Counted from the first letter of the stretch, positions 23,920-56,067 are shown. The stretch: DNA of 64,000 bases from Alphaproteobacteria bacterium (GCA_965243135.1 OZ251539.1:1184001-1248000); one strand, 5' to 3'. Translations and numbers: made by a program. Notes: generated by a model not told the origin, from the letters alone.

Positions 23920-24036
23920 CGACAGACCCCTCTTCTCATAATTCAGGTGGCGGAATGTTAACTGCAATCAATGCTTCGTTCAACGCCGAGAAAAATCCCG
24001 AAAAATCAGACACTTGGGAGTTAGGATCGCAGAAAA

Positions 24037-27147: not shown

Positions 27148-28111
27148 CCGTTGGACCTCCGCGAAAGTTTTCATCTTAGCTTCGCGACCGCTTCATGAGG
27201 AGCGTTCCGTCCCCGGCGCGCCGGGCGGTTCGGTCCCCGCGGCATGCCTTGGAACTTCCTCGCGGCGTCGACGGCTTCCGGCACCGGTACGGCGAGGCCG
27301 GAGCGCCTGCGCAAATGGCGTCGGCGCGTTCAGTTCCGCGACGGGAAAGGAGAGTCGAAGGCGCAGGCGGCGATTCCCGCCGCGCCCGGACGGGACTCGC
27401 GTTCGGCAACGCCACGCGCGAGCGTCGAGGTTTGCCGCGGCGGGCGTCCTCTCGGCGCGGCCGAACGCGTCGGGCGGCTTCTCCCGTTCCCGACCAGCGC
27501 GTGTCGCTTCGCGAGCGTCCGGTTCACGTTCAACGCTGCCAGCGGCGGTCCCCTCATGCGTTGCCCGGACTCGGTCGATGGCGGCCTCGCGGTCAAGGCC
27601 GGCTATCCGGAAGATTGCGTCAGCGGCGATACGCCGCGTTCGGTCGATAACCTTCCAGCGACGATTTTCGCAAACTCTCTTGCAGAACGCGAATTTCGTC
27701 CGGCTACCGTCAAAACGCGCGAATCGTCGGCGGGACGGCGTTTCGCTTTTCCGGGCCGCCGGCCGCCAGCGCCGGTCCGCGACTCGGAGAATTTTTCGCG
27801 GCGCGCCCTCTTCGGAAGTTCGGAATCAGGAGGCGGAAGGCCGCCGGGTTCCGCCTTCGAGCCGCAACGCTTGCGTCGCGCCGGGTTTGCGGCGCGGGAG
27901 CTACGCGCGGGGCGCTTGAAGGCGCCAGCTCCGCCACCCTGCGGAGCTGCCAGCGACCCCGCCATCGCAGAACCGCGGCTGATGAAGCGACTGAACTCCA
28001 GGCGGCGGTTCCGCTGAACGAGAGCGTTCCGCTTCATCCGCTCGTCCGGCCGAGCGAGGCGGACTCCGCCTCCTCCTTGACGGCTCCGGCGTGGCGGCCT
28101 ACCCTTTTGGG

Positions 28112-29654: not shown

Positions 29655-29907
29655 AGCCGGGCACCGGACGGGTTGGACGTCCCGTCTGGACATTTCGGCA
29701 GGCGGCGGCGCCTCCGCGACAGGCACCGGTAGATCGCGTCGCAGGTCGCCATGCTCCTCGTCGAGGACGGCCGTTGTTTCCGCCGGGTCGCCGCCTTGCG
29801 CGTCGGCAGCTTGACGGGACGCGCTGCCGAGGGAAAGCGCGGCCCGGCGTTCGGCTGGACTCCGTCTCCTCCTTGACGGCTTCGGCATGGCGGCTTACCC
29901 TTTTCGG

Positions 29908-31455
29908 ATGACGAGACGCATGCTTCCGACCGGCATGTCCTCCCTCCGGACGATCCGGGAGCTGGACTGCTACTACGTCGACAAGACCGCCCATGTGCGC
30001 CGCCTCGTCGAGAGGGGCAGGTACTATTTCCTGTCGCGTCCGCGCCGGTTCGGCAAGACCCTTTTGGTGGACACGCTGCAGGAGTTGTTCGAGGGAAGCG
30101 AGGAGTTGTTCCGGGGCCTCGCCGTGCACGACGGGTGGGACTGGTCGGCGCGCCATCCGGTCGTGCGGCTGGATTTCAGCGGCGTGGGCCGCTTCGACGG
30201 CCCGGACGGGGTTCGGGAGACCGTGGAAGCGCAGCTGGAAGAGACGGAGATGCAGGCCGGCCTCGAACCGGGCCCCGCCGGGGCGGCGATCCGTTTCCGG
30301 CGCCTGATAAGGACGCTGCACGAGCGCACCGGGCAGCGGGCGGTCGTTCTGGTGGACGAGTACGACAAGCCGATCCTGGACGCGCTCGGCGACCGGGAAC
30401 TGGCGCTGGCCAACCGCGACTTCCTGCACAGCCTGTACGGGGTGATCAAGGCCTGCGACAGGCAGCTCCGTTTCGTTTTCCTGACGGGAGTGAGCAAGTT
30501 CTCGCAGGCGGGCGTGTTCTCGGGCCTGAACAACCTGCGCGACATCACCCTCGACCCGCGTTTCGGCGCCATGTGCGGTTACACGGACGCGGAGCTGGAC
30601 GCGGTCTTCGCCCCGGAACTCGAAGGCCTGAACCGGGACAAGGTCCGCCGCTGGTACAACGGCTACAACTGGCGCGGGCCGGAGAGGGTCTACAACCCGT
30701 TCGACATTCTCCTTCTCTTCGAAACGCGCGAGTTCGAGGAGCACTGGTTCCAGACAGGCACGCCGACCTTCCTCGCCGACCTTCTGTCGCGTCGCCGGGT
30801 CTCGGCGCCGGACCTGGAGGGCGCGATCGCGAACGCCACCCTGCTGTCGGCCCTCGACGTCGACCGCATTCCCGTCGAGACGCTGCTGTTCCAGACCGGT
30901 TATCTGACCATCGTCGACGAGAAACGGGACGGGGACGCGCTCCTCTACCGGCTGGACTACCCGAACCGGGAGGTGAAGCGCAGCCTGAACGAGCTCCTGC
31001 TGCAGACGATGGTGCCGGACGTCGCGGTCGCCGCGGAGAGCAGGGAGTTGCGCCACCTGATGCGGACGAACGACTTCGCGGGCCTCGAGCGGCAGTTCCG
31101 GGCATTGCTGGCGAGCATCCCGAACGAGTGGTACGCGAACACGGGCCTGGCGGGCTACGAGGCGCACTATGCGAGCGTGTTCTACTCGCACTTCGTTGCG
31201 GCGGGGATGGACGTCCGCGCCGAGGAGAGCACGGCGCGCGGCCGCTCGGACCTGACGGTCCTGTACGACGGCGGCGTCTACCTGTTCGAGTTCAAGGTCG
31301 CGGACGGGAAGCCGGAAGGGCGAGCGCTGGCGCAGATTCGGGAGCGCGGCTATGCGGACAAGTACCGGCGTCCGGGCGTGCCGGTCCACCTGATCGGCAT
31401 CGAGTTCGGCCGGGAGGAGCGCAACATCGTCGGGTTCGAGTTCGAGACCGTCTGA
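29908..31455 (+). CDS. AAA-ATPase-like + PD-(D/E)XK nuclease protein, copy 2, intact
   Basis: RPRRFGKT, VDEYDKP, FSGLNN, YNPF, YPNREV, GRSD...FEFK...ALAQIRERGY. Confidence 0.92.
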   Translation: MTRRMLPTGMSSLRTIRELDCYYVDKTAHVRRLVERGRYYFLSRPRRFGKTLLVDTLQELFEGSEELFRGLAVHDGWDWSARHPVVRLDFSGVGRFDGPDGVRETVEAQLEETEMQAGLEPGPAGAAIRFRRLIRTLHERTGQRAVVLVDEYDKPILDALGDRELALANRDFLHSLYGVIKACDRQLRFVFLTGVSKFSQAGVFSGLNNLRDITLDPRFGAMCGYTDAELDAVFAPELEGLNRDKVRRWYNGYNWRGPERVYNPFDILLLFETREFEEHWFQTGTPTFLADLLSRRRVSAPDLEGAIANATLLSALDVDRIPVETLLFQTGYLTIVDEKRDGDALLYRLDYPNREVKRSLNELLLQTMVPDVAVAAESRELRHLMRTNDFAGLERQFRALLASIPNEWYANTGLAGYEAHYASVFYSHFVAAGMDVRAEESTARGRSDLTVLYDGGVYLFEFKVADGKPEGRALAQIRERGYADKYRRPGVPVHLIGIEFGREERNIVGFEFETV

Positions 31456-33026
31456 AGCCGGGAGCCGTCGACGTCCCGTTCGGACATTTCGGCAGGTGCC
31501 GCCTCCGTGCGCGCCGACGGCTTGACGGGACGCGCTGCCGAGGGAAAGCGCGGCCCGGCGTTCGGCCGGACTCCGTCTCCTCCTTGACGGCTCCGGCATG
31601 GCGGCCTACCCTCTTCGGATGACGAGACGCATGCTTCCGACCGGCTTGACCTCCCTCCGGAAAATCCGGACGAGGGACTGCTACTACGTCGACAAGACGG
31701 ACCATGTGCGTCGTCTCGCCGAAGGGGGCGATTACTATTTCCTGTCGCGTCCGCGCCGGTTCGGCAAGACCCTGCTGGTGGACACGCTGCAGAAGCTGTT
31801 CGAGGGAAGCGAGGAGCCGTTCCGGGGCCTCGCCATACACGACGGGTGGGACTGGTCGGCGCGCCATCCGGTCGTGCGGCTGGATTTCAGCGGCGTGGGC
31901 CGTTTCGACGGCCCGGACGGGGTTCGGGGAACCGTGGAAGCGCAGTTGGAAGAGACGGAGATGCAGGCTGGCCTCGAACCGGGCCCCGCCGGGGCGGCGA
32001 TCCGTTTCCGGCACCTGATAAGGACGCTGCACGAGCGCACCGGGCAGCGGGCGGTCGTTCTGGTGGACGAGTACGACAAGCCGATCCTGGACGCGCTCGG
32101 CGACCGGGAACTGGCGCTGGCCAACCGCGACTTCCTGCGCAGCCTGTACGGCGTGATCAAGGCTTGCGACGAGCAGCTCCGTTTCGTTTTCCTGACGGGG
32201 GTGAGCAAGTTATCGGGCCTGTTCTCGGGCCTGAACAACCTGAACGACATCACGCTGGACGAGCGCTACGGCGCCATATGCGGCTACACCGACGACGAGC
32301 TGGACGCGGTGTTCGCCCCGGAACTCGACGGCCTGGACCGGGACGAGGTCCGCCGCTGGTACAACGGCTACAACTGGCTCGGACCGGAGAGGGTCTACAA
32401 CCCGCACGACATCCTGCTGCTGTTCGACAAGCGCAGATTCCGCCCGTACTGGTTCCAGAGCGGCACGCCGACCTTCCTCGCCGATCTTCTGGCGCGGCGC
32501 CGGGTCTCGGCGCCGGCTCTGGAGGGCATATTCGCGAACGACGACCTGCTGTCGGCCATCGACATCGACCGCATCCCCGTCGAAACGCTGTTGTTCCAGA
32601 CCGGTTATCTGACCATCGCCGACGAGAATCTGGACGAGGACGCGCCCCTCTACCGGCTGGACTACCCGAACCAGGAGGTGAAGCGCAGCCTGAACGCGCT
32701 CCTGCTGGAGACGATGGCACCGGACATCGCGGTCGCGGCGGAGAGCCGGAAGCTGCGTTGCCTGATGCGCGCGAACGACTTCGCAGGCGTCGAACGGCTG
32801 TTCCGGGCGTTCCTGGCGAGCATTCCGAACGAGTGGTACGCGAACACGGGCCTGGCGGGGGCGCACTACGCGAGCGTGTTCTACTCTCATTTCGTGGCGG
32901 CGGGGATGGACGTCCGCGCCGAGGAGAGCACGGCGCGCGGCCGTTCGGACCTGGCGGTCCTGTACGACGGCGGCGTCTACCTGTTCGAGTTCAAGGTCGT
33001 GGACGGGAAGCCGGAAGGCCGGGCGC

Positions 33027-35267
33027 CTTTCATCCCCCCATTGTCGAGTCCTTGAGCATGTCGTTGTTCCGTAGCGCCTTGTATATTTGAACGTAGGCCT
33101 TGAGGTAGCCGTAGCCCTGCCAGATGGTCCCGGGCAAGGGCTGGCGTTTGGAGGGGATGAAGCCCGCGAGCCGTCCCACGTCGACCACGAAGGTCTGGAC
33201 GTCGAGGTTTTCGGGCGGCGACCTGCTCTTGACCATGCCTCGTTCGGCAAGGTAAAGCACCGCAATTTCATCTTCGTCCGCGACTTCGGCGGCGGGGGCG
33301 TCCGGCCTGTCCCGCGCCATGCGCTGGAAGTCGAAGACCCGGCATGCGGTAATGGCGTCGAAAGCAAGGCACTTTCGGAGGTCGTCGGCATCGTCGAACT
33401 GCCGGTCTTCGATGCCCATGCCGGACTTGAGGGCCTTGAAGTATTCTTCGATCGTCCAGCGCCGTTCGTACCACTTTACGACGCGCACCGCGTCGTCTTT
33501 CTCGGGTTTGCCCTCCGTCGTGAGCAACAGCCAGTCGAGGCCTTGCGGTCCTGCGACCGACACGGCGAGCATGGAGAGAGGCGCGTCGCCGGTCCTGTCG
33601 CCGGGCGGCACGAGCCGGACGCGGGCGGCGCGGATGTCAAGCGTCACCTCGCGTTTCTTGCGCGCCCGCTTGCCGCCGCAGGCGGCGAGGTTCAGCGACC
33701 TCCGGGTCAGCACCGGCTGTTCCGCCATGTGGTTCCAAAGCCCTTTTTTGCTGCCATCTTCGCACAGCACGCGCCGCCGCTTCGAGCGGCAGGCGCGCAC
33801 CACCAGGCCGGCACCCGCCGCGACCGCCCTCGACAGCAGTTCCATCCCCTTCCCGGTCGCACACGGTGATGACCTGCGTGTCGGGGCAGGCGCGCGCGAT
33901 TTCCTGCGCCTTGTCGAAGTGGCCAGCGGACGCTCTCGCTTTCGTCCTTGTCGTCGCGCATGGTGGCGTCGATCTCGAAGACCCCGAGCGGGCGTCTTGA
34001 GGTCGCAAGTCCGAAGTGGGCGGCGATGCCTTTGGTTCCCGACCCGCCGCCGCCGAGCGGCACCAGGTGGCTTGCAGGCCGTTGTAATTCAGCATCGTCG
34101 TGTCCTGGACCGCTAGAACCACGCGCTCCTTGCGGCAGCGCTCGACCATGCATTCCTTGTGCGACTCGAGAACGTGCTCCATGCTCACCCTCGGATTCGA
34201 CAGCAGCCGGTAGGCTGCTTTCTGATCTTCCTTGTCCGGGAAGATCACCGGTACCGGTTCGCCGGGCCGTGCCTCCCATGCGCGCCCCATTCGTACCACC
34301 GCGAATGCGTCCGTCCGGGTGCGTTCCGCGTCCCATTCCGCCCAATCGTCGGACGGAGGTGCCTCCGGGGCGAGGCCGAGCATCCGTTCCGGTTCCCGGC
34401 GCAGCCGCTCTTTCCAGTCGGCGGCCAGCGGCTTCGACCGACCGTGCGACGCCCCTCTCCATGGCGCCTGGCGGCAACCCCGACGTCGGCCTGCCGCAAC
34501 GCTCCCATCCTGCCGCGCGATAGCAAGCGCCGGAATGGTCGGGAGAGACGTAAGTGTAGGCCGGACGCACGCCGTAGGCGGCTTCCCAATCGCCGGGCAG
34601 TCGCGTCGCCGCGAGGTCGAGAACGTGCGACGCAAGCCCGCGCACGCGCACCCCCGGCAACAGCAGAAACCGGTTATTGTTGACCATCCGTTGCAGGTTG
34701 GCGACCCGTGCGTCCGCCGACCAGCCGACGAACTCATCGCGCGCTTTCTGGTGCCAACTGGCGGCGCAGAAAGCGATGCCGCCCAGTCGGCCATGACGGG
34801 ACGACACGATCCAGTAACACCTTTGCGCGCCCGGCGGACGCATCCATCGCTGCGGATGATGGGTTGCCATCATCGAGCGCCACCGCTCCTTGTCGGCGCT
34901 CCCAGAAACCGGTTCCAGCGCGACTTCTCCGACCTCCGCCAGACTGCAGCGAAGCGACAGGTTCGGAAAATTCCGGGCCGGCGCCTTCTGCGGCAGGCGC
35001 TCCTGCGGCGGCGGCAAGGCGATCCCGAGTTTCTCGGCGAGCTTCGGCAGGATCCGTCGCGCCGAGGCGAGGCAAAGTTCGCCCTTCTCATTGCGCCAGT
35101 TCTCGCGCTCGCACAGCCCGTGGGCCAACTGACGCCGGGTGCGACCACCCTCGGCGACTGCCGCTCGGAACCACTCGATACTGTCCGCATGGAAACGGTG
35201 AAGTCCAACTTGCATACGCCGAAAGTAGCGTCACCGATTCATGGAATCAACTATTATTTGACGAAAG
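33027..35267 (-). mobile_element. IS4-family (IS50/Tn5-like) element, 2241 bp, with decayed DUF4338-transposase fusion
   Basis: 9-bp target duplication GCCGGGCGC at 33018-33026 and 35268-35276; imperfect TIRs CTTTCATC.. / CTTTCGTC..; DDE motifs QDTT, DREGD, WYERRWTIEEYFKALK. Confidence 0.92.
33030..35215 (-). pseudogene. DUF4338 (DruA-like) domain fused to IS4 transposase, several frameshifts
   Basis: N-part: AASW....RD.FVGW, VNNNRFLLLP.VRV.GLASHVL, GACYRAAGW; C-part: AAYRLLSNPRV, WLLLTT, LAGF..SKRQPLPG. Confidence 0.85.
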
Positions 35268-44395: not shown

Positions 44396-47107
44396 TTGTT
44401 GGCTGACAGCCCCGAGTTTCCGCCGCTTCCCGATATCGAACAGGTTTCCATCGAAGACGAGATGCGCAAGTCGTATCTCGACTACGCGATGAGCGTGATC
44501 GTGAGCCGGGCCCTCCCCGACGTCCGCGACGGACTCAAACCCGTGCATCGCCGCATCCTCCACGTCATGAACGAAGAGGGCTACGACTGGAACCGGGCGT
44601 ATCGCAAGTCGGCGCGCGTCGTCGGCGACGTGATGGGCAAGTACCATCCGCACGGCGACCAGGCGATATACGACGCCATGGTCCGCATGGCGCAGGATTT
44701 CTCCATGCGCCTGCCGTTGATCGACGGACAGGGAAACTTCGGGTCGATGGACGGCGATCCGCCCGCAGCCATGCGATACACCGAGGTTCGACTCCAGCGG
44801 GCGGCTCGCGAACTGTTGGACGACATCGACAAGGAAACGGTCGACTTCCAGCCGAACTACGACGAGACCTCGAAGGAGCCGGTGGTTCTTCCGGCGAAGT
44901 TTCCCAATCTCCTGGTGAACGGCGCCGGCGGCATCGCGGTCGGAATGGCGACCAACATCCCGCCGCACAATCTCGGCGAAGTGATCGACGCCTGCTGCGC
45001 GTTGATCGACAACCCCGACATCTCGTTGAACGAGCTGATCGGCATCGTTCCCGGTCCCGACTTTCCGACCGGCGGGAGCGTCATGGGCCGCCGGGGCATC
45101 ACGTCCGCCTACCATCACGGCCGCGGGTCGGTGGTGATGCGGGGACGCACCGGCGTCGAGGAAATACGCAACAACCGCGAAGCCATAATCGTTACCGAAA
45201 TTCCCTACCAGGTGAACAAGGCGCGCATGATCGAGCGCATCGCGGAACTGGTTCGCGAGAAGAAGATCGAAGGGATTTCGGATCTGCGCGACGAATCGGA
45301 CAGGGACGGCGTGCGGGTCGTGATCGAGCTGAAGCGCGGCGCGATCGCCGACATCGTGCTCAACCAGCTCTACCGGTACTCCTCGCTGCAGACGAGCTTC
45401 GGCATAAACATGCTCGCTCTCGACGAGGGCCGTCCCGGACTTCTCGATCTCAAGCGGATCCTCGAGGCCTTCATCGGCTTCCGCGAGGAGGTCATTCGCC
45501 GCCGCACCGAGTACGACCTCGGGAAGGCGCGCACTCGAGCCCACGTCCTCGTCGGCCTTGCGATCGCCGTCGCGAACATCGACGAAGTCATCGCCCTGAT
45601 CCGCCGCGCGAAGGATCCCAACGAGGCGCGCGCGGAACTCATGGAACGGGACTGGCCCGCGGCGGACGTCGCGCCGCTGATCGAGCTGATCGACGATCCG
45701 GGGCATCGCGTCGTCGACGGGCGTTACAAGCTGTCGGAGGCGCAAGCGCGCGCCATTCTGGAATTGCGGCTGCAACGGCTGACTGGCCTCGAACGGGAAA
45801 AGATCGCCGAAGAGCTGAACGATCTGGCGAAGGAGATAGAGCTTTATCTTTCGATTCTGCGCTCGCGAGAGAAGGTGCTCGCCATCGCGAGGGAGGAACT
45901 GCAGGCCGTGAAGGAGAAGTTCGCGACGCCGCGCCGCACGCTGATCGAGGATGCCGAGTTCGAGACCGATATCGAGGATCTGATTCAGCGCGAAGAAATG
46001 GTGGTTACGGTGAGCCACACCGGATACATCAAGCGCGTGCGCCTTTCCACGTACCGGGCGCAGCGGCGCGGCGGAAAAGGCCGGGCCGGCATGTCGACGC
46101 GCGACGAAGACTTCGTCACCAAGGTGTTCGTCTGCAGCACCCATACGCCGGTCCTGTTCTTTTCGTCGCGCGGAATGGTCTACCGGTTGAAGGTGTTTCG
46201 GCTGCCCGAGGGCGAGCCGCAATGGCGCGGCAAGGCGCTGGTGAACCTTCTGCCGCTCGACGCGGGCGAGGTCATAACGACCGTTTTGCCCCTGCCCGAA
46301 GACGAGGAAACCGGAGAAGACCAGTTCATCATGTTCGCGACGGAGAGCGGCAACGTGCGCCGGAACCGGATGTCCGATTTCACGAGCATCAGGGCGAGCG
46401 GCAAGATCGCGATGAAGCTGGATTCGGGCGACAAGCTGATCGGGGTCGACACCTGCGGCGCGGACGACGACATTCTGCTGGCGGCCAACAACGGCAAGTG
46501 CATTCGTTTTCCTGTCGCCGACACGCGGATATTCAGCAGCCGCAATTCCACCGGCGTGCGCGGGATCAGGCTCGGCGAAGACGACCGGGTGGTGTCGTTG
46601 ACGGTTCTGGACCATACCCGGCTGGACGTCGAAACCCGGGACGCGTATCTGCGCGCGGCCAGGGCGCGCCAGCGAAACGGCGCGGAGGAGCCGGAGGAAA
46701 CGGACGCCGCCGGCGAAGACATCGCGCAGGAGGAATTCCAGCGTCTCGCCGAGGCCGAGCAGTTCATTCTGACCGTGACGGAGAACGGCTTCGGCAAGCG
46801 GACTTCGGCCTACGAGTACCGAACGACCCACAGGGGCGGGCGGGGTCTCGTCAATATCGCTACGGAAGGACGCAACGGGGAGGTCGTCGCGTCCTTCCCG
46901 GTCGCTCCGATGGACCAGATCATGCTGGTGACGAACGGCGGCAAGATCATCCGAAGTCCAGTGGGCGATATCCGCATCGCCGGGCGGGCGACCCAGGGCG
47001 TGAACCTTTTCCGGACGGCGGACGGGGAAAAGGTCGTTTCGGCGGCGCACGTGGAGGAAGGCAACGGGGAAGATGGCAACGGGGAGCGGACGGAGGAGGC
47101 TTCCTGA
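44396..47107 (+). CDS. gyrA: DNA gyrase subunit A
   Basis: [23 protein letters not shown], GyrA-box QRRGGKG. Confidence 0.98.
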
Positions 47108-47801
47108 AGCGCGCCTTCGGACAGCGTTCCCGAGAATGTCCGGGAGGATTCGAACATCGTTTCCCCTCAACGGATCCGAGCGCCGAAAATACCGTAAAGC
47201 GGCACGGCGTTTCTTTCCATCGCATGGACAGCAACCGCTACGGATGACGAAAACGGGCGAGGCGACGCAGAAGGCGCTGGTCACCGACGGGTGCAGGTCC
47301 GATATCGCCAAACCGGAAAATCTAGAAAGTTTACCCGCCTGCGCCGCCCTGGAGGCTGACGTTACCGTGCATCGCCCGAGGTTGCCGGCCTTTTCGGCGC
47401 GCTGGTATAGTGCTGCCGGATCATGAGGAAGGATGGCGCGATGAGGTCGGAGGATCCGAGAGTGCTCGACATCGGCGTTGGGGCGATGCTCGCCCAGGGC
47501 CGGAGGAGTCGCGCCGGATGCTCGCGCCCGTCACGAAATTCTCGGTCGGCTTCGGGACGGCCCGAAAGAAAAACGCGAGGTTGGCGCGCCACGGCAGTTG
47601 TTCGCCGCCGCGCTCGCCCGGCGAAACATGCGGAAGGGCCGCCCCCTCCAGAGACGTCCGGCGCCGCCTCGCGGTTGCGTCTTCGGAAGACCGCAGCGAA
47701 GCAGGCAGCCGACCGGACGCCGCCAGCGCAGCGGCCGGTCGACGCTGCGGCGTAAGGCGCCTCTTTCCTCGCGAACGACACGGTTTGCCCGCCGCAAAAG
47801 C

Positions 47802-50036
47802 ATGAACAAAGCGCAATTCTCCGTCGACGCCGCACTCGTCCGCGAACTGGGCGAACGCTTGGTAGGCCGGGACCATATCGCGCTGGCCGAACTGGCGAAG
47901 AACGCTTACGACGCCGATGCTGCCAATTGCAGCATCCGCATATTCGACGACTATATCGAGATTGCCGACGACGGCCATGGCATGTCGGAGGCGGTATTCT
48001 TGGATCATTGGATGCGTATCGGCACGACCCACAAGGCCGACCGGCAGTTTTCCGAAAAGTTTAGGCGACCCCTTGCGGGGTCCAAGGGAATCGGACGCTT
48101 GTCCGTCCAGTTTCTCGCAGAAGAGATGGAACTCTACAGCACGTCGCCGGAGCGTCCGAACTCGGCGCTCTATGCGATCGTCGACTGGCGCGGCATCGAA
48201 CAAGGGAAAGACCTCGCTACGTTCAATGTCGATTGGGACTTCATTTCCGACGTGCCGGACTATGCGGCCGGCAGCCTGACGGGAACCCTGATCCGTCTCA
48301 AGAACCTGAAGACGGAATGGACCGCAGAAACGCTTCGAAGCCTCGGCGGGGAAATCTGGACTCTCCGGTCGCCGTTCGGGCGTCGATCCCGCGCCGGCAG
48401 CGCAGAAGAATTCGTCATCGATCTGGACGCGCCGAAAATCGCCGGCGCACGGGAAGCGTTCGACGCAGCGCAGACAGCTCTTTTCGACAACTGGCGCGCC
48501 CGCATCAAGGGCAACCTTACGCGGGGCCGACGAGGCGAACCGGCGCTCGTCTCCCTCGAATTCAGGCCGGGCTATCCCGACGGTTCGAGCGATGCCGAGG
48601 ATTTTTCGGAGACCGTGCCGCTGCCCGTTCGCACCGGCCCCGATGCCCCGGAACCGTTCGTCGACGAAGCTTCCTTCGAGATTCTTGTCTTCAGGACCGA
48701 GGGTCGGCAAGCTGGCGGCCTCTCCGTCCGGAACGTAAGAGACTATCTTGCAAAGTTCGGCAATGTCTCCTTATACGATGCCGGCTTTCGACTTCCCTAC
48801 TACGGCGGCAGCAATGAAACGGGCGGGCAGGACTGGCTGGGCGTGGCGGTCGACCAGGCGCGGCGGCTGAACGTTTCGAAACTGTTGCCTGACCGCCTGC
48901 AAGCTTCCAGCCGCTACATGCAGGATCTGCCGGCGCCCGGGCGGATCTTCGGCGCTGTCCATGTGAACACTGGCCACGAAGCGGCAGCGGCGCGCGCCGA
49001 GGGCGCCCTCCGACTGCAGATTCAACCGGGCCGGGATCGGCTTCACAACAATGCCGCCTTCGTTCAGTTGCGCGACCTCGTCCGTTTCTCGCTCGACCTC
49101 TACGCATTCCGATACCGGCAACTCTCGCTCCGCGCGGCCGAAAGAGAGATGCCGAAGGAACCGCCGTCGCGCACGATCGACCGTTCGCTCGCCACTATCG
49201 AACGCAACAGGGACGACATCCCCACGACCGTCTACCGTGAAGTCCGCGAAGACGTCCTCGGCGCGAAGAAAGCGGCCGCTGCCGCGGAACGGACGTTCGA
49301 AGAACGTATCGCGGCACTGGCGCCATTGGCCACCGCAGGCATGACGGCGCTGGCGCTTAACCACGAACTTGCCCGCGAAACCCGCTTCATGCAGGCTGCC
49401 TCCGACCGTCTCCGCCAGATGGCGGAGGCCCGTTCGCTGCCTGAACTGAAAGATATGGCCGACCAGTTCGACGAGCTGCGCGGTCGACTCGCGTCGATCC
49501 AGGCTCTTTTCGCTCCGCTGCTTTCCGAAGCGGATTCAGCGCCGACCGAGCGTCTGCGGGCGCTTCCGGTGATCCAACAAATCGTCGGCTCCATGCGTCC
49601 CCTTCTGCCGGGTGTCGAAGTCGATTTCACAGGCGTGCTTGGCACACTGCGGTTTCCGGTCGGATCGTTCGCCGAATGGAGCGCGATCATTCAGAATGCT
49701 CTCGCAAACGCTTGGAATGCAACGTTGGACTCCTCGCGCCGAATTATTTCATTCGACAGCGGCCGTGATCGCAGCGGACGGGACCGGCTTTTGATCAGCG
49801 ACACGGGGGGCGGCTTGGCGATGCCGCTGTCGGCATCGGACGTTTTGTTCGAGCCGTTCGAGCGCCGCTTCGAGATTAGCGACGACAACCGTTCGATCGC
49901 TATCGGCGGGCAGGGACTCGGCTTGACGCTCATTCGCATGCTGTCCGCTCGCATCGGCGCGCGAGCCCGTTTCGTGAAACCGTTGGAAAATTTCTCGACA
50001 TCGTTGGAGATCTCGTGGATGGGGGTTAAGGAATGA
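47802..50036 (+). CDS. GHKL (MORC-like) ATPase fused to C-terminal histidine-kinase module
   Basis: N: ELAKNAYDADA, DDGHGM, GSKGIGRLS, GTLIRL; C: NHEL H-box, NALANA N-box, DTGGG, LFEPF, GQGLGL. Confidence 0.88.
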   Translation: MNKAQFSVDAALVRELGERLVGRDHIALAELAKNAYDADAANCSIRIFDDYIEIADDGHGMSEAVFLDHWMRIGTTHKADRQFSEKFRRPLAGSKGIGRLSVQFLAEEMELYSTSPERPNSALYAIVDWRGIEQGKDLATFNVDWDFISDVPDYAAGSLTGTLIRLKNLKTEWTAETLRSLGGEIWTLRSPFGRRSRAGSAEEFVIDLDAPKIAGAREAFDAAQTALFDNWRARIKGNLTRGRRGEPALVSLEFRPGYPDGSSDAEDFSETVPLPVRTGPDAPEPFVDEASFEILVFRTEGRQAGGLSVRNVRDYLAKFGNVSLYDAGFRLPYYGGSNETGGQDWLGVAVDQARRLNVSKLLPDRLQASSRYMQDLPAPGRIFGAVHVNTGHEAAAARAEGALRLQIQPGRDRLHNNAAFVQLRDLVRFSLDLYAFRYRQLSLRAAEREMPKEPPSRTIDRSLATIERNRDDIPTTVYREVREDVLGAKKAAAAAERTFEERIAALAPLATAGMTALALNHELARETRFMQAASDRLRQMAEARSLPELKDMADQFDELRGRLASIQALFAPLLSEADSAPTERLRALPVIQQIVGSMRPLLPGVEVDFTGVLGTLRFPVGSFAEWSAIIQNALANAWNATLDSSRRIISFDSGRDRSGRDRLLISDTGGGLAMPLSASDVLFEPFERRFEISDDNRSIAIGGQGLGLTLIRMLSARIGARARFVKPLENFSTSLEISWMGVKE

Positions 50037-51319
50037 AAGTTCTTGTTTGCGACGACTTGTCGGAAGACAAGGATGATTTCGGTGAAGCGATTCGGGAAGC
50101 CGATCCCAATATAGAAGTAGAGCGCTTGCACGGCACCACGTTGCCGGAAGAGCTGGACCGTTTGTTTAAGAACGTTTCAAGCATTCTGAAAGCGCCTGAT
50201 CGGCCGTCGCCGCATCCGACGAAATTCGATGAAAGTTACGACCTTGTATTTCTCGACAACAATCTGGCTTATTTGAATATTGTCGGTGCGAGGCTGACGG
50301 GCGAGGCTGTCGCCGGGTACATCAGGGCGTTTTCGTCCTCCTGTTACGTCGTGTCGCTAAACAAAAATCCCGATGTGGACTTCGACTTGCGCTACTTGAT
50401 GGGCGATTACGAGACCCGGGCGGATTTGGCGTTGAACACCGATCATCTTTCCAATCGGGCGCTGTGGACGCACAGAAAGCAAGAAGCGACAGACGGTTTT
50501 CTGCCGTCGTATTGGCCCTGCCTGAACGAAATCGGGCGGAAACGCCGCCTCCAGATAGGTTTTGTTTTGGAAAACCTGAACCGGCCTGTTCTGGAGGTAT
50601 TCCAATTCGATGAAAATGCGGTAGAAATGCTGTCCAGACATGCGAAAGGGACGCTTTTCCAATCTCCGAGCGCGAACGCTTCCGCTGTCGAAGATTCCAA
50701 TTTTGACAAAGCGACGTTTATGGATTTATTTTCCGCCTCAAGGCGTTTCCTTCCTGTTCCGAAAGAAAGGGAATGCATAAGGGCGGCGGCCGAGAAGAAT
50801 TCTCAAAATGCGAAACGGATCGTCGCCCGCGTGGTTGCGGCGACAATCGATCACTGGTTCCGCCGCGATGTCCTCGGCCCACAGGAAGTTCTCGTGGACA
50901 TGGCTCATTTGCTGCCGCGCATGCCGTTTCTCTTGGGCACGGGAGCAAGCGACGTCGACCGCTGGAACGCCGCGCTCGAAGCCGATGATCCACTGTCCGC
51001 TCTGGATCGCGCCTTGGTCGAAAAGCACCTATGGGGGAGCCTTTTTCCTCATGATATTTGGATCCCATCTCCTTGTTTCTGGTGGAACAGGCTTCAAGAC
51101 AACGAAGAGCTGAACGAGTTTTTCTTTCAGGAAGACACGAACTGGGCTTCCGTTGTTTTTTGCGAGGATAAATCCGAATTCGTTCCACGACCCGACGACG
51201 ATCAATCGCCGCCGTTCGAATTTGCCGCCGAATACGAAAGCGGCGCATGGAACCGGCGTTTCGTAAATTCCATCGAAGGATTTAGATATGGTCCGAAAAG
51301 TCGCTTTGCTGCTCCGTGA
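50033..51319 (+). CDS. Receiver-domain protein with unknown C-terminal region
   Basis: MKVLVCDD acidic pair and LVFLDNNL phosphoacceptor-like Asp; ATGA overlap with the kinase gene. Confidence 0.75.
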   Translation: MKVLVCDDLSEDKDDFGEAIREADPNIEVERLHGTTLPEELDRLFKNVSSILKAPDRPSPHPTKFDESYDLVFLDNNLAYLNIVGARLTGEAVAGYIRAFSSSCYVVSLNKNPDVDFDLRYLMGDYETRADLALNTDHLSNRALWTHRKQEATDGFLPSYWPCLNEIGRKRRLQIGFVLENLNRPVLEVFQFDENAVEMLSRHAKGTLFQSPSANASAVEDSNFDKATFMDLFSASRRFLPVPKERECIRAAAEKNSQNAKRIVARVVAATIDHWFRRDVLGPQEVLVDMAHLLPRMPFLLGTGASDVDRWNAALEADDPLSALDRALVEKHLWGSLFPHDIWIPSPCFWWNRLQDNEELNEFFFQEDTNWASVVFCEDKSEFVPRPDDDQSPPFEFAAEYESGAWNRRFVNSIEGFRYGPKSRFAAP

Positions 51320-51356
51320 TTTTTGTATTCGACGAAGCAATATTGGCCGCATTAAA

Positions 51357-51974
51357 ATGGATTACATGGAACTTATGCGCGGCTATGCGATCACCGGGGT
51401 GCGCGATTGGAAATCAAAAGCGCCCGAATCCATAAGGAAAAACGCTTTGGAGTGCTTAGCGCACAGGTATCTGGCGGAGGAGGAACAATATATTGACAAC
51501 ATCTTGCGGCAAGAGAAATCTAGCCCCTCGCCGAGATTCATTCCGATGCCGCGACCGGGTTTCAGAAGATCGACAAAAAAGCGTTTTCAATGGACGTTCT
51601 TTGCGCCCGTCGGATTGGATGATATAATGAGTTTTGAGTTGTTGATTTTGTACGAAAAAAGGCAATGTCTTGCGTTTCGTTTGGAACCAGGACATCCTGA
51701 AAGCAGATCGCATAATTATACGCATATTCAATTCAACCAAGATTTGTACAAAAAGAGAATTCAAGTCGCAGGAATCCCGCCTTTCATTTCTGACAGCTTT
51801 CCAGCCTTTCCGTTGCCGGGTTCGGATGCCATCTCGTTGTTTTTTGCTATGATTGTTGCCGTTCACGGATACCAAGGAACCCTCAACATAATACAGCGTG
51901 TGTTTCAGGCGGGCAGTGGTTCAGAGAAAGTTAGTAAGTATTTGATACATTTAAGAAATCTGTTAAGAGTCTAA
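51357..51974 (+). CDS. Hypothetical AT-rich protein, candidate effector
   Basis: 205 aa; FRLE...HNYTHIQ and SFPAFPLP motifs; co-oriented with the kinase and receiver genes. Confidence 0.7.
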   Translation: MDYMELMRGYAITGVRDWKSKAPESIRKNALECLAHRYLAEEEQYIDNILRQEKSSPSPRFIPMPRPGFRRSTKKRFQWTFFAPVGLDDIMSFELLILYEKRQCLAFRLEPGHPESRSHNYTHIQFNQDLYKKRIQVAGIPPFISDSFPAFPLPGSDAISLFFAMIVAVHGYQGTLNIIQRVFQAGSGSEKVSKYLIHLRNLLRV

Positions 51975-53402
51975 TGGAACGGTAGCTAAAAATCGTCGGT
52001 AGCAGCGTATGTATCCGCCCTTGATCTTTGGCGCTATGCCTACCAACGCCCGTTCCAGCCCTCCGTCCTTCAACCTCCCGTACAACTCGTCGACGTCATC
52101 GTCCGGTGCGAAGATTGCATAGACGCCGTGCGAAGGGATCGCCCCCGACCTGTCCACCGCAAGCCGGGGAACCTTGGCGAGTTCCGGAAGAACGAGCTTC
52201 GGCCGTGCCCAGTCGACAGCGAGCGTTCGGTCGATCGTCCGGTACCAGGCCGCTCCGTTTCTGACGATCGAGCGATTTTCGAGTTTGGTTTTGAAGCGCT
52301 CCAGGCGAGCGGCCAGCAATGGAAAACGGTCGAGGTCTATCAGCCTTCCGTCGTCGTCGTGCATGGCGACGACGCGGCGTCCGCGCCACGTCACACGCCC
52401 CTCCGAGATTTCCGAGCCGTCGATCCACGGGCGAAGAAGTTCCTGTTCGACGTCGTTCTCCTCGGGTCGGAGGACGAACGCGGGCGTATGGCCCAGCGCC
52501 GGTCCGACCCGAATCAGGCAGTTCGCGTCCGCCAGCGTCCGGCGCCTCGCGCCCGCAGAGGCCTTTCGCTTTTCCGCTCTCTTGGATGCGACCAGAATCG
52601 ACGGATAGGCGTCCACGCCGGTTGCAAAGGCTTCCGCCGCGTCGATCGATCTCTCGGAGATTATCTTCAAACGCGGCGTCCATTTGTCGCGGAAGGCTTG
52701 ACCAAAGGCCATGAAACGCCAGCGGTCGGAACACAGAAATCCGCACCGCCCGCCGACCTCCAGAAAATCCAGCGCCATGTCGAGAAAGGGCAGGAAGAGA
52801 TCGCCGCCCGTCACTTTGCCGGGCAGACGCGCGGCATAGCGGGATTTGAGCGGTTCCGGGATCTTTGACCAACGAATGTAGGGCGGATTCCCGACTGCAT
52901 GCGTAAAATTCCAGTTCCCGGGTTCAGCCATGAGAAAATCTTCGTCGGCAATCCAGGCGTTGACGCAGGCGGTCGCCGTCCGGTGGTGCAAACCGGACTT
53001 CAGGAGCGTTTTCCAGACGCGCATTCGCGCTTCGCCCGCGGCGGCGGGGTGGATCTCGAAAGCGCTGATCCTATCGACGAGCTGCGCCGCCTTCGGATCG
53101 ATGTCTCGCCTCCTGAACGAAGCGATCAGGCGCTCTGCCGCAGCGACGAGGAACGCGCCGTTCCCCGCGGCCGGCTCCAAAAGGCGAGTTTCGGCGAGAT
53201 CGGCGCCGCTCGTCCACCCCACGGCGTCGAGAATCTCGTTCACGATTTCCGGTTTCGTGTAAACCCCGCATCGCGCATGGAGTTCCTGCACGGCGCGGTC
53301 GACGACCGGTTCCCTGCTTCTCTCCTTTCGCGGGCTCGTATCGTCCCCGGAGGCCGGAACGGCCGCCGTTCCCGGTGCCGCCAGGCTCCCGCCGTCGCCC
53401 AT
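51963..53402 (-). CDS. N6-adenine DNA methyltransferase (gamma class, TaqI/PaeR7I/Eco57I-like)
   Basis: VYTKP, LLEPAAGNGAF (motif I) preceding GNPPY (motif IV); start uncertain. Confidence 0.9.
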   Translation of the reverse strand: MGDGGSLAAPGTAAVPASGDDTSPRKERSREPVVDRAVQELHARCGVYTKPEIVNEILDAVGWTSGADLAETRLLEPAAGNGAFLVAAAERLIASFRRRDIDPKAAQLVDRISAFEIHPAAAGEARMRVWKTLLKSGLHHRTATACVNAWIADEDFLMAEPGNWNFTHAVGNPPYIRWSKIPEPLKSRYAARLPGKVTGGDLFLPFLDMALDFLEVGGRCGFLCSDRWRFMAFGQAFRDKWTPRLKIISERSIDAAEAFATGVDAYPSILVASKRAEKRKASAGARRRTLADANCLIRVGPALGHTPAFVLRPEENDVEQELLRPWIDGSEISEGRVTWRGRRVVAMHDDDGRLIDLDRFPLLAARLERFKTKLENRSIVRNGAAWYRTIDRTLAVDWARPKLVLPELAKVPRLAVDRSGAIPSHGVYAIFAPDDDVDELYGRLKDGGLERALVGIAPKIKGGYIRCYRRFLATVPLDS

Positions 53403-53439
53403 GCGCCGGGGCGCGGTTTGCGATATGATGCCGTTCGTA

Positions 53440-54588
53440 ATGATTGTCGCAGGCCTCTTTGCCGGAATAGGAGGTTTCGAACACGCCTTCGCCCAAGCGG
53501 GGTTCGAAACCCGTTTGCTCGCCGAGATCGATCACGCGGCGCGGGCGATCCTAGAGGAACGCTTTCCGGGGATCCAGATCGGAAAGGACGTGGCACGCTT
53601 GACGGAGCTCCCGCACGGCACGGAGATCGTAACCGCCGGATTTCCTTGCCAGAACCTGAGCATGGCGGGCGACAAGTCCGGCATCGACGGCGACAAGTCT
53701 TCCGCCGTGAAAGCGATTTTTCCGCTGATAGAGCGGGCGAACGTCGGCACCGTCGTTATAGAGAACGTTTACTTCATGCTGCAGCTCAAATCCGGCGATG
53801 CCATGCGCTGGCTGGTCGAGCAGTTCGAGAAGCTGGAGTTCAAGTGGGCGTACCGCGTCCTGGATACCATGGGCTTCGGACTACCGCAGCGCCGCCGTCG
53901 CGTGTACATGGTGGCCAGTCGGGAGATCGACCCCCGGAGCGTGCTATTTGCGGATGACGCTCACGCCTCCGTGGCCGAGAATTACGATCTGAGAAAGCCC
54001 TTGGGATTCTATTGGACCGAAGGGCGATCCGGCGTCGGCTTCGTGTCGGACGCCATCCCGCCGATCAAGGCCGGCTCGTCGTTGGGAATTCCGTCGCCGC
54101 CCGCCGCGCTTTTTCCTGACGGCGAGGTCCTGATGCCCGACATCGCCGCTTGCGAACGCCTCCAGGGATTTCCGGAAGGATGGACCTTTCCCGCCGAAGA
54201 CAGGGGTACGAGAGGCGTCCGTTGGCGCTTGATCGGCAACGCTGTTTCCGTACCGGTCGCGCAATGGATCGCCGGGCGCCTCAGAGAACCCGGAACGCCT
54301 CGGGAGTTCGACGTCTTCGAACTCGGCGACGGCGACCGCTGGCCGGCTTCCGGCTGGAACGTCGGAGACGGTCGGATCGGCGCAATCGCCTCGGACAAGC
54401 CGTTCGACGCCCGCCCGCCGTCGATCGCGACATTCCGGGATGCGTCCTGGTCGAGGTTGTCCGACCGTGCATTGAACGGCTTTATCGGACGCGCCGTCGA
54501 GGGAGGCCTGAGAATGCCGCCGGGTTTTCTCGAAGCTCTTCGCTCGGCGGATCGCAGACCCCCAAGCCGCCAAAGGACGCGCAGGTAA
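53440..54588 (+). CDS. dcm: C5-cytosine DNA methyltransferase
   Basis: LFAGIGG, AGFPCQ, IENV, PQRRRR, ERLQGFP, GNAV. Confidence 0.93.
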   Translation: MIVAGLFAGIGGFEHAFAQAGFETRLLAEIDHAARAILEERFPGIQIGKDVARLTELPHGTEIVTAGFPCQNLSMAGDKSGIDGDKSSAVKAIFPLIERANVGTVVIENVYFMLQLKSGDAMRWLVEQFEKLEFKWAYRVLDTMGFGLPQRRRRVYMVASREIDPRSVLFADDAHASVAENYDLRKPLGFYWTEGRSGVGFVSDAIPPIKAGSSLGIPSPPAALFPDGEVLMPDIAACERLQGFPEGWTFPAEDRGTRGVRWRLIGNAVSVPVAQWIAGRLREPGTPREFDVFELGDGDRWPASGWNVGDGRIGAIASDKPFDARPPSIATFRDASWSRLSDRALNGFIGRAVEGGLRMPPGFLEALRSADRRPPSRQRTRR

Positions 54589-54709
54589 CCGGCATCGCGA
54601 GCCCGAACCGCTGCCGCGCAATCATGTCGAAGGTTTGGCGGAAGGATACGAAGCTGACATGCGACGCCCTTCGACGAGCTACCGCTGCTGTCTGCAAAAG
54701 CTCCCCGGC
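54585..54709 (+). pseudogene. vsr: Very-short-patch repair endonuclease Vsr, 5' relic
   Basis: Overlaps dcm stop; (V)TGIASPNRCRAIMSKVWRKDTK and YR..LQKLPG resemble Vsr D..S...RS..MS.V..KDTKPE...YR....LPG. Confidence 0.7.
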
Positions 54710-55056
54710 GCGCGATACTTCGTCCGGGTCGCCGACGGCGAACCCCTCGCCGTCCTCGACTTCGGCGCCGCAACCTGGAAGATCGCGCATCAGGACAAGA
54801 TCGTCGGAACCGCCGCCTTGCCGCCGACGGTCACCGAGGCCTGCCTTGGGTTCGGAACCTCGCGTCCCTCGCTCTGGTGACGACCGCCCGATGACGGGAA
54901 GCGCCGCTACGCATCGGTTCTTCTCAAGACGTTCTGCAAGACTCCGCGCTTCGAAGGAACCCACGCCGCCAGCAAGGCAGGGCCGCGAAGCGCCCGGGAC
55001 GCACCGTTCAACTGGCTGAAGCCCCTGCGCCGGGATCGGAGGCGGATCCTCAACAA
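54701..55056 (+). pseudogene. DUF4338-domain relic
   Basis: LPGARYFVR..DGEPLAVLDFGAATWK...D, RY..VLLKTFC.TPRF.GT, KPLRRD.RRILN across frames. Confidence 0.7.
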
Positions 55057-55428
55057 CGTCACCCCACAACCGAACGCTTACTGAAGCACAGGCCGCGCTT
55101 GTACCTGCGAAAAACTTGAGCTTGCGTTCGAAATCCTTCAACGCCGATCTTGTCGTCGGCGCGGGGACGACGAGATTATCGTTGACGCTGCCACGCAGGA
55201 CGGCGTCGTTGGCGGGACGCGCCATCGTTGCCTGCAATCTTGGAGAGAGGTTTGCACGCCTGCAAAAGAGGCTTGAAATCCGGGTCGCACCGGATTACTG
55301 TACGCCGCGATGGCCTGTCCTTGGCGGGTTTTGTAATAATTTGATTTAATTGCAAAATTCTGCGATTCAACCAAGCGAGATGCGCGGGTTGGGCTCTCCC
55401 GGACGGCGACACTGGCATGGAAGGCACG

Positions 55429-55956
55429 ATGGCTGGCAAACGGGTGGGAATTTATCCAGGCACTTTCGATCCGGTCACTTACGGGCATATCGACATAATC
55501 GGCCGGGCCGCGAAGCTGCTGGACAGAGTTGTGGTCGCCGTGGCCATCAATACGGGCAAGGCCCCGATATTCGGAATCGAGGAACGGATGGAGGTCGCTC
55601 GCGAAGAGATCTCCCATCTGCCGGACGACGTCGCGCAGCGGATCGAAGTGATGCAGGTGGAAGGTTTGCTCATCGAGTTCGCGCACAAGGTGGGAGCCAA
55701 CATAATCATTCGCGGCTTGCGGGCCGTTTCGGACTTCGACTACGAGTTCCAGATGGCGAGCATGAACGCGAAGATGGCGCCCGACGTGGAAACGGTCTGC
55801 CTCATGGCTTCGGACAAATTCCAGTTCATAGCGTCGAGCCTGGTCAAGGAGATCGCCAAGCTGAACGGCGACGTGAGCCCGTTCGTGTCGCCGCGAATCG
55901 CCGACCGGCTGGCGAAACGTTTCCATGACCAGCAGAACGCCGCGCAGCGCGGTTGA
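55429..55956 (+). CDS. coaD: Phosphopantetheine adenylyltransferase
   Basis: IYPGTFDPVTYGH, IRGLRAVSDFDYE, SSLVKEIA. Confidence 0.97.
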   Translation: MAGKRVGIYPGTFDPVTYGHIDIIGRAAKLLDRVVVAVAINTGKAPIFGIEERMEVAREEISHLPDDVAQRIEVMQVEGLLIEFAHKVGANIIIRGLRAVSDFDYEFQMASMNAKMAPDVETVCLMASDKFQFIASSLVKEIAKLNGDVSPFVSPRIADRLAKRFHDQQNAAQRG

Positions 55957-55991: not shown

Positions 55992-56067
55992 GCGCCCATA
56001 GCTCAGGTGGTAGAGCAACTGACTTTTAATCAGTGGGTCCCAGGTTCGAGTCCTGGTGGGCGCACCA
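55992..56067 (+). tRNA. tRNA-Lys(UUU)
   Basis: GCGCCCA/TGGGCGC acceptor stem, ACTGA-CTTTTAA-TCAGT anticodon arm, GGTTCGAGTCC, encoded CCA. Confidence 0.97.

Follow-up and report, generated by a model that had tools for sequence, protein, structure and literature searches.

In a 64,000-nucleotide stretch of DNA from an Alphaproteobacteria bacterium (GCA_965243135.1 OZ251539.1:1184001-1248000; hereafter the window), five adjacent genes make up a 6.8-kb cassette that is conserved as one unit across phyla. The open reading frames (ORFs) of the cassette are predicted to encode a GHKL ATPase fused to a histidine-kinase transmitter (ORF1), a receiver protein with a large C-terminal domain (ORF2), a small fast-evolving protein (ORF3), and two unlike DNA methylases (ORF4 and ORF5). 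We tentatively propose, with confidence a little short of even, that the cassette is a restriction-modification (R-M)-like defence system, in which the ATPase would probe DNA and signal through a phosphorelay to an effector formed by ORF2, perhaps together with ORF3. That the five genes work as one functional unit is held with much greater confidence than this, and that the effector is a nuclease with less.

The cassette begins with ORF1 (47802-50036, + strand, 744 amino acids [aa]) and ORF2 (50033-51319, +, 428 aa), which overlap by 4 bp. ORF3 (51357-51974, +) has 205 aa from the ATG at 51357, or 228 aa if the start lies at 51288; the ATG at 51357 is more likely the true start, because homologues begin to align there. 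ORF4 (51963-53402, −, 479 aa) converges on ORF3 with a 12-bp overlap and lies head to head with the divergent ORF5 (53401-54588, +, 395 aa). Both methylase genes possibly start internally, since homologues align from about aa 30-38 of ORF4 and from aa 13-14 of ORF5, where an internal Met may serve as the start. All five ORFs align to homologues over their full length. This map agrees with an initial annotation of the locus, which had described five intact reading frames at these coordinates, the coupling of the first two, the convergence of ORF3 and ORF4, and an N6 methylase head to head with a C5 methylase; Pfam and the catalytic motifs bear out the last of these as well.

The five genes as one conserved unit

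A genome collection was scanned with the ORF2 alignment and two peptide patterns, which matched 55 stretches. Of these, 31 were confirmed, giving 30 loci (given numbers with the prefix L where they need to be told apart). According to the record titles, they come from Alphaproteobacteria, Gammaproteobacteria/Pseudomonadales, several Acidobacteriota, Longimicrobium, and Nitrospinota. One of them, L015, is from Pelagibacterium halotolerans ABH-592, a cultured strain whose genome is complete. Searches by tblastn with the window proteins recovered all five genes in 29 of the 30 loci, the exception being L005, where the contig ends after ORF2. The kinase-like and receiver-like genes are adjacent and co-directional in every locus (30/30), the C5 methylase is present in 29/30, and both methylase types, for N6-methyladenine (m6A) and for 5-methylcytosine (m5C), occur in all 29 informative loci. 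The order and orientation seen in the window are kept in 28 loci, while in L025 the methylase pair is inverted as a block, and the ends of ORF3 and ORF4 abut or overlap in most loci. The genes that flank the cassette in the window, gyrA (44396-47107) and coaD (55417-55956), both identified by a Pfam scan, were found by tblastn at none of the 30 loci, indicating that the cassette is not tied to the gyrA-coaD site.

The association also extends to a far more distant relative. On a plasmid of Mycolicibacterium arabiense, an ORF2 relative with 25% identity is accompanied by the four other families in a rearranged order: a 775-aa ATP-binding protein, a 236-aa hypothetical protein, an Eco57I-type methylase, and dcm, with the methylases upstream. 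In addition, the matrices of pairwise distances for the five proteins are all correlated with each other (Spearman 0.33-0.76; 24 taxa, after 7 loci with truncated or interrupted genes were left out), and none of 999 permutations reached the observed values. As the divergences of the five genes co-vary, we conclude that the cassette travels as a unit. Whether the five genes are conserved together had been named beforehand as a check on the initial annotation, and the loci, the plasmid, and the distance correlation together answer this strongly in the affirmative.

These data bear directly on whether the cassette might consist of two unrelated modules that merely travel together, namely an orphan methylase pair, which vsr may or may not accompany, and a triad of kinase, receiver, and ORF3, without any functional link. 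The inverted methylase block of L025, the upstream position of the methylases on the Mycolicibacterium plasmid, and the distances of the C5 methylase, which correlate least with those of the other genes (0.33-0.56), would all suit such an arrangement. Co-occurrence in 29/29 informative loci across phyla and on a plasmid at 25% ORF2 identity, the correlation of all distance matrices, and the tail-to-tail overlap of ORF3 and ORF4 make it very improbable.

Only one further gene recurs at the cassette. In an all-against-all clustering of flanking ORFs, vsr was the only additional recurrent gene; an intact vsr adjoins 16 of the 30 related cassettes, and Pfam confirmed the Vsr family in all 10 that were scanned. 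Its usual place is immediately before ORF1, on one strand or the other; in three loci it is found beyond the C5 methylase. The phyletic scatter suggests that the cassette is horizontally mobile, and vsr is a probable optional sixth gene. The initial annotation had also reported a vsr relic after the C5 methylase in the window, and this could not be upheld. A tblastn search with 16 Vsr proteins of related loci against 54.4-55.5 kb gave no match at E<=10, and the local Vsr hidden Markov model scored 0.8 bits over about 35 aa at 54573-54680 (+; i-Evalue 0.1), so that this putative remnant of at most 35 aa, carrying an N-terminal motif, is statistically unsupported.

ORF1 and ORF2 as a predicted phosphorelay pair

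From its domains and motifs, ORF1 is predicted to be a soluble paraMORC-like GHKL ATPase joined to a complete histidine-kinase transmitter, as the initial annotation had proposed. Pfam identified an N-terminal HATPase_c_3 domain (aa 26-120, 1.3e-14) and a C-terminal HATPase_c domain (aa 629-724, 6.9e-13), a combination found in one soluble protein in the window and in 26/26 orthologues. No segment resembling a transmembrane helix was found, the highest Kyte-Doolittle score over 19 residues being 1.27. An alignment of these 27 sequences contains 135 invariant residues, among them the N-terminal Bergerat motifs (E30, N34, D37, D56xGxG60, and G93SKGxGRL), the H-box (H521-E522, within NHEL), and the N, G1, F, and G2 boxes (N632, N636, D667xGxG671, F683, F686, and G702GxGxGL). 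The ATPase head and the transmitter are separated by about 380 aa of conserved sequence, the middle region. Residues 120-500 gave no match in Pfam or in a PDB sequence search, and nothing was found below E 2.5 when PDB sequences were searched with ORF1.

The first ~180 aa of ORF1 additionally match the N-terminus of NF050001, the family of the BbrUII/HgiDII restriction endonucleases (1.8e-24, 86.3 bits, against a cut-off of 550), and this stretch is also matched by two REase_II models of PADLOC. The match to NF050001 covers only 179 of the 659 profile positions (2-179), and ORF1 has the ATPase head of this family without being such an enzyme; in ORF1, the rest of the endonuclease is replaced by the middle region and the kinase transmitter.

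ORF2 has 477 homologues with ~45-75% identity over the full length, all named "hypothetical" and none with a Pfam domain, and 638 clusters at 50% identity were recovered by a profile search. The protein itself gave no match in Pfam, NCBIfam, or PADLOC. Its first ~150 residues nevertheless resemble a receiver: in 31 sequences D8, D75 (within DNNL), and T89 are invariant, and D7 and K111 are conserved in at least 90%, where the assignment of these residues to CheY positions is our own reading. The AlphaFold2 (AF2) model of ORF2, with a predicted local distance difference test score (pLDDT) of 84.3 and a predicted template modelling score (pTM) of 0.89, has D75 as the last residue of a strand (71-75). 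When this model was compared to PDB and BFVD with Foldseek, the best matches were response regulators, covering the N-terminus only and weak (E 3e-3 to 1e-1; 5e-2), with no match at E<=0.001 in either database.

A phosphorelay between the two proteins is supported by the invariant kinase and receiver residues, by the receiver fold of ORF2, and by one database protein of 1162 aa in which ORF1 and ORF2 are fused. The two residues for which the initial annotation had predicted phosphotransfer, the His of NHEL (H521) and the Asp of DNNL (D75), are both invariant in the orthologue alignments.

Alternatively, phosphotransfer may have been lost, the kinase and receiver parts now serving as a docking pair or as an ATP-driven clamp in a multi-subunit restriction complex. 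Several features are in line with this. The DHp region of ORF1 is divergent, the best score with the HEF_HK model PF19191 being 23.5 bits against a cut-off of 24.1; only 14 residues separate D75 from T89 in ORF2, which shortens the alpha3 region of the receiver; and pseudo-receivers and pseudo-kinases are common in general. The catalytic signatures are conserved, however, in 27 (ORF1) and 31 (ORF2) sequences with a mean identity of 44-55%, which is hard to explain without catalysis, and we therefore regard a vestigial relay as improbable.

The candidate effector and the proposed mode of action

The remainder of ORF2, a domain of ~280 aa, is strongly conserved (including W275, R277, R278, D289, H292, E378, D379, E396, E402, R408, and R409), and aa 164-336 are largely helical in the AF2 model. 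No relative of this domain was found in sequence or structure using Pfam, NCBIfam, PADLOC, PDB profiles, or Foldseek against PDB and BFVD. An alignment profile of aa 150-428 found nothing below E 2.5 among PDB sequences, and a protein atlas search with the same region gave no usable match. The description of ORF2 in the initial annotation, as a receiver protein with a C-terminus unlike known output domains, is borne out by these searches. A reading of the FCED motif (E378-D379) as part of a PD-(D/E)xK nuclease site was not adopted, as the next position is variable and no Lys is conserved.

Natural disruptions of the cassette single out the same protein. In 3 of the 30 loci, ORF2 is split by insertions of 1.4-1.7 kb at three different positions (L018 8774-10488, L025 8801-10439, and L026 6556-8001). 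These insertion sequences (ISs) have terminal inverted repeats and encode different transposase types (DDE_Tnp_1, DDE_Tnp_1_4, and HTH+rve). No IS was found in the other four cassette genes across the 30 loci, and these genes are intact in the interrupted loci. As ORF2 makes up 19% of the cassette, simple arithmetic gives a chance of ~0.007 that all three insertions would hit it. Frameshifts are present in ORF1 of L007 and ORF3 of L028, both of them metagenome-assembled genomes in which sequencing error is possible. The IS pattern is what one would see if the cost or toxicity of the cassette lay in ORF2 while the methylases were retained; the ORF2 C-terminal domain is our candidate effector. 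The initial annotation had assigned this role to the third protein, ORF3; the insertions point to ORF2 instead.

ORF3 is the fastest-evolving of the five proteins (mean pairwise identity 0.33). It carries a conserved motif R-x-E ... H-x-Y-x-H-x-Q followed by SYPAFP, and G14, R108, E110, H119, H123, Q125, P149, A150, F162, and G171 are invariant in the alignment. Its AF2 model is confident (pLDDT 90.6), yet Foldseek found no fold match for it in PDB (best E 0.5). There was no NCBIfam or PADLOC match, no Pfam family below E 0.035 in 32 members, nothing below E 2.5 for the alignment against PDB sequences, and no receiver match in the model, Foldseek, or Pfam. Two candidates were rejected. Repeated Foldseek rows suggesting an E2/UBC-like protein were considered noise (probability <=0.10, TM-score ~0.15-0.2), and a lead to DUF2290 from the protein atlas (0.84, among otherwise unnamed clusters) had no backing from Pfam in the 32 members. 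For a predicted complex of ORF2 and ORF3, the scores of 0.00 and 0.26 lie below the mark of 0.32, which counts neither way. The GC content drops to 0.44-0.55 over ORF2-ORF3, compared to ~0.62-0.66 in most neighbouring 500-base segments, in keeping with the AT-rich protein without a family that had been noted at first.

The methylases are more readily classified. ORF4 matches Pfam Eco57I (5.2e-09) and the PADLOC model MTase_II PDLC03313 (5.1e-87), and contains the motifs NPPY (aa 172) and EPAAGNG (aa 76), the latter of which we take to be the S-adenosylmethionine motif. It is predicted to be a gamma-class (Eco57I/TaqI-like) N6-adenine DNA methylase without a nuclease domain. ORF5 matches Pfam DNA_methylase (9.5e-42) and PADLOC PDLC03324 (1.2e-111), and its motifs FAGIGG (FxGxGG), PCQ, ENV, QRR, and GNAV, presumably motifs I, IV, VI, VIII, and X, mark it as a probable C5-cytosine DNA methylase that has kept its catalytic residues. 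With these, intact signatures are present throughout the cassette: two GHKL nucleotide-binding sites and an H-box in ORF1, a receiver in ORF2, and catalytic motifs in both methylases.

In the mechanism that we propose, the N6-adenine and C5-cytosine methylases would mark the host DNA, most simply by modifying one strand each of an asymmetric site. A dimer of ORF1 would probe DNA with its paraMORC-like N-terminal ATPase clamp, and an encounter with unmodified DNA would switch on the C-terminal kinase, leading to autophosphorylation of H521. The phosphoryl group would then pass to D75 of ORF2, and phosphorylation of the receiver would free the C-terminal ~280-aa domain. Alone or together with ORF3, this domain could attack the unmarked DNA or otherwise arrest the cell, with ORF3 as a possible accessory subunit in specificity, catalysis, or restraint. 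The initial annotation had likewise suggested dual m6A/m5C self-marking. The methylase motifs required for this are intact, although a plainer precedent exists in the type IIS R-M systems, in which an m5C and an m6A methylase each modify one strand of an asymmetric site; M2.Eco31I methylates one strand of GGTCTC (according to the available part of PMC3526304 and, by its title, to Bitinaite 1992, reference 28 therein). The most specific form of the proposal, in which a His-to-Asp relay couples a DNA-probing paraMORC-like ATPase to nucleases or other DNA-acting enzymes of novel fold in the ORF2 C-terminus and ORF3, with dual m6A/m5C strand marks, would be the first immunity of its kind; we consider it rather doubtful as it stands.

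The genomic neighbourhood offers some support for a role in defence. A scan of 109 of the 112 nearest flanking ORFs (at most 4 per locus) showed other R-M or defence domains at 14 of the 30 loci, including EcoRII, GmrSD, Eco57I-type giants, parts of type I and type III systems, and DarT-Macro.

Several observations weigh against defence by this route. The other 16 loci have no recognisable defence neighbours, and the 30 loci, picked by two ORF2 peptide patterns, are a non-random sample of the family. ORF2 relatives were absent from 50,697 phage records and gave one match in 72,556 plasmid records, so that the claim of mobility rests on phyletic scatter. No nuclease or known enzymatic domain was detected in the ORF2 C-terminus, ORF3, or the ORF1 middle region with Pfam, NCBIfam, PADLOC, and PDB profiles, nor did Foldseek against PDB and BFVD reveal a nuclease match for the ORF2 and ORF3 models; the conserved Lys of the PD-(D/E)xK motif is likewise not evident in the ORF2 C-terminal domain. 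With no nuclease family found in any of the five ORFs, the cassette has no recognisable restriction endonuclease, in line with the initial annotation. Defence, sensing, and phosphotransfer are all inferred here from conserved signatures and genomic context.

The missing nuclease signature in the ORF2 C-terminus and ORF3 is what would be expected of an abortive infection system, in which the same relay would release a non-nuclease toxic enzyme, formed by the ORF2 C-terminus with ORF3, and the methylases would prevent self-triggering. IS knock-outs of ORF2 suit any toxic effector, and a non-nuclease receiver-effector has a precedent in Detocs, a phosphorelay phage defence reported as validated (bioRxiv 10.1101/2023.01.24.525353, available text). 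On the other hand, two obligatory DNA methylases and a frequent vsr point to DNA as the molecule that is discriminated, and in relatives the kinase-receiver module occurs together with HNH nucleases. We consider abortive infection of this kind unlikely.

Somewhat less likely again is that the cassette is an epigenetic regulatory two-component system, in which ORF1 would sense the methylation or nucleotide state and ORF2 would carry a novel DNA-binding output that acts on the methylase promoter or on other genes, leaving orphan-like methylases and no restriction. Response regulators are mostly transcription factors, much of ORF2 (aa 164-336) is helical in the model, ORF4 and ORF5 share a short divergent intergenic region, and no nuclease was found in the cassette. 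Control of R-M systems by kinase-receiver pairs has also been proposed for related proteins (PMC8011034, discussed below). However, the ORF2 C-terminus is rich in invariant charged and aromatic residues, which is more typical of an enzyme, and matches no helix-turn-helix or other DNA-binding family. The confinement of IS insertions to ORF2 and the 14/30 loci in defence or R-M neighbourhoods also argue against regulation, which moreover leaves ORF3 without explanation.

If the proposed R-M-like relay does operate, its compact and widespread cassette, with obvious point mutants (H521, D75, and the ATPase motifs), offers a direct handle on it. It would allow one to ask how a MORC-like clamp turns the reading of DNA modification into a signal, a question that bears on eukaryotic MORCs as well. 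The cassette also holds two confidently modelled domains without a solved structural relative.

Related systems and genomic surroundings

Coupling of epigenetic marks to DNA cleavage by methylase-linked GHKL/MORC ATPases has been predicted since 2008, and a kinase-receiver version since 2021. The latter work (PMC8011034; Bellieny-Rabelo, Pretorius, Moleleki 2021), which in its available parts is computational only, describes pairs of histidine kinase (HK)-like and response regulator (RR)-like genes linked to R-M systems. The HK-like proteins consist of HATPase_c_3, a new DHp domain called HEF_HK (PF19191), and HATPase_c, while the RR-like proteins contain Response_reg_2 (PF19192). Across 644 regions, a linkage of 91.6% was reported, and C5 methylases, Vsr, and HNH_2 were enriched; Klebsiella loci with HNH_2 adjoining the RR-like gene are found in Table S2. 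Its authors propose descent from paraMORCs and a regulatory role of the pair over R-M systems.

As far as these parts of the paper go, the cassette shares with the HEF_HK pairs the soluble architecture of HATPase_c_3, a His-Glu DHp, and HATPase_c, the adjacent co-directional receiver-like gene with a C-terminus of no known family, and the linkage to C5 methylase and Vsr. The HK-like proteins of that study are longer, with ~990 aa and HEF_HK at ~aa 775-840 (Table S3), compared to 744 aa and an H-box at aa 521 in ORF1, and the order in most of the available rows (C5 methylase, HK, RR) differs from that of the cassette, which has an obligatory ORF3 and N6 methylase as extra members. PF19191, with a gathering score of 24.1 bits, gave no match at E<=10 on the window ORF1. 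It gave sub-threshold scores on 8 of the 26 orthologues (12.5-23.5 bits, all over the H-box) and 17.1 bits on a plasmid relative of ORF1 with 24% identity, which reads as remote homology rather than membership by the model. PF19192 matched neither ORF2 (E<=10) nor 40 distant relatives, and since the model matched nothing here, this comparison has no positive control.

The initial annotation had allowed for a match to a described system, and the outcome is a divided one: the cassette appears to be a distant member of a computationally described class, while the cut-offs of PF19191 and PF19192 are not reached. It is best regarded as related but distinct, a probable divergent and shorter subtype of the predicted class that both models miss. 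New in the cassette are its own ORF3 and the obligatory pair of m6A and m5C methylases; the concept of the architecture is already in print.

More distant relatives were found on plasmids. A Bacteroides finegoldii plasmid (L034, 6001-11103) encodes a GHKL ATPase fused to a histidine kinase, then a receiver-like protein of 209 aa, an HNH endonuclease, and an N6 methylase of the Eco57I type, and appears to be a simpler relative system with a recognisable nuclease. On a Paraburkholderia plasmid, an Eco57I-type methylase is followed by a distant ORF1-like kinase and two proteins of no known family, and an Agrobacterium plasmid has a distant ORF1-like kinase and a 433-aa protein, also without a family, near vsr and a C5 methylase. 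Comparison of the ORF2 and ORF3 profiles to the partner proteins of such distant plasmid systems with hhalign gave nothing significant (best E 0.11); these partners either belong to other families or are too remote to be reached from a single-sequence template.

Iyer, Abhiman and Aravind (PMC2292703, 2008) described MORC and paraMORC ATPases in R-M operons with methylases, Vsr, and nucleases, and proposed that ATP-driven DNA handling couples recognition to cleavage; receivers go unmentioned in the available portion of that paper. VcSduA, a Shedu fusion of a paraMORC3-type GHKL domain to a nuclease, is a validated phage defence according to the available text of PMC12137116. Like these proteins, ORF1 has an N-terminal GHKL domain with intact Bergerat motifs and is encoded with methylases. 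In contrast to ORF1, those proteins lack a kinase transmitter, and a recognisable nuclease or helicase is either part of them or a neighbour.

In common with Detocs, the cassette is predicted to have a cytoplasmic histidine kinase that signals to a receiver-effector. Detocs has a TPR sensor, a buffering receiver protein, and a PNP-type ATP nucleosidase as effector, and is not known to contain methylases. In ORF2, neither PNP nor any other family was detected, and PADLOC found nothing, although PADLOC-DB 2.0.0 may hold no Detocs models. Type IIS systems such as Eco31I, Esp3I, and Alw26I share the unlike pair of C5-cytosine and N6-adenine methylases. What sets them apart from the cassette is an ordinary type IIS endonuclease, and they lack an ATPase, a kinase, and a receiver.

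BREX, DISARM, MADS, and Druantia likewise combine a methylase with ATPases and proteins of no known family, and the methylase domains of ORF4 and ORF5 match the PglX, DrmMI/II, mad2, and DruM models of PADLOC weakly to moderately. Membership in these four systems was rejected, as the methylase domains alone match and ORF1-3 match no component; no model of PADLOC-DB 2.0.0 matches ORF2, ORF3, or two of their orthologues. A predicted and unvalidated HATPase + REC system appears in a figure legend of PMC13092281, the part of that source available, and may or may not be the cassette family. No experimental study of the R-M-linked GHKL kinase-receiver form was found in the literature.

At four loci, large proteins of 1091-1697 aa are encoded directly upstream of the cassette (L006 98-5191, L014 68-5191, L010 1884-5159, and L020 2117-5701), a feature not conserved across all loci. 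Those of L006, L010, and L020 contain an Eco57I methylase domain, that of L014 was grouped with L006 by BLAST clustering alone, and in both L006 and L014 the large gene is separated from ORF1 by a vsr. These proteins are possibly type IIG-like enzymes.

In the window, spacers of ~0.7-0.8 kb separate the cassette from gyrA (47108-47801) and from coaD (54589-55416). Both look non-coding, ORFs inside them have no Pfam or PADLOC match, and they may be remnants of the element that brought the cassette. Direct and inverted repeats flanking the cassette were sought as insertion marks; only short, chance-like matches and no insertion scars were found. A tRNA-Lys gene (anticodon TTT; 55992-56067, +) directly follows coaD, ~1.4 kb past the end of the cassette, with no integrase or flanking repeat seen in between.

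Elsewhere in the window, three tandem AAA-ATPase_like (PF09820) paralogues are encoded at 28091-33052 (+), two of which have PDDEXK_9, while the first matches the front part of the ATPase domain only; PADLOC gave no hit for them. A group of four intervals (21549-22865, −; 33707-35212, −; 10518-11063, +; 23314-23964, −) comprises a HipA_C kinase-toxin-like gene, a partial DruA-like match (profile 54-173/297), a PhoX fragment (67-172/515), and a urate-oxidase N-terminal fragment, and the last three may be the decay that the initial annotation had mentioned nearby. Finally, a complete Septu-type defence pair is located at 11296-13803 (−), ~34 kb from the cassette, with a full-length PtuA (628 bits, PDLC00270) and a PtuB (142 bits). 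Its GC content at third codon positions is low (0.41-0.46), and it looks like a separate acquired defence island.

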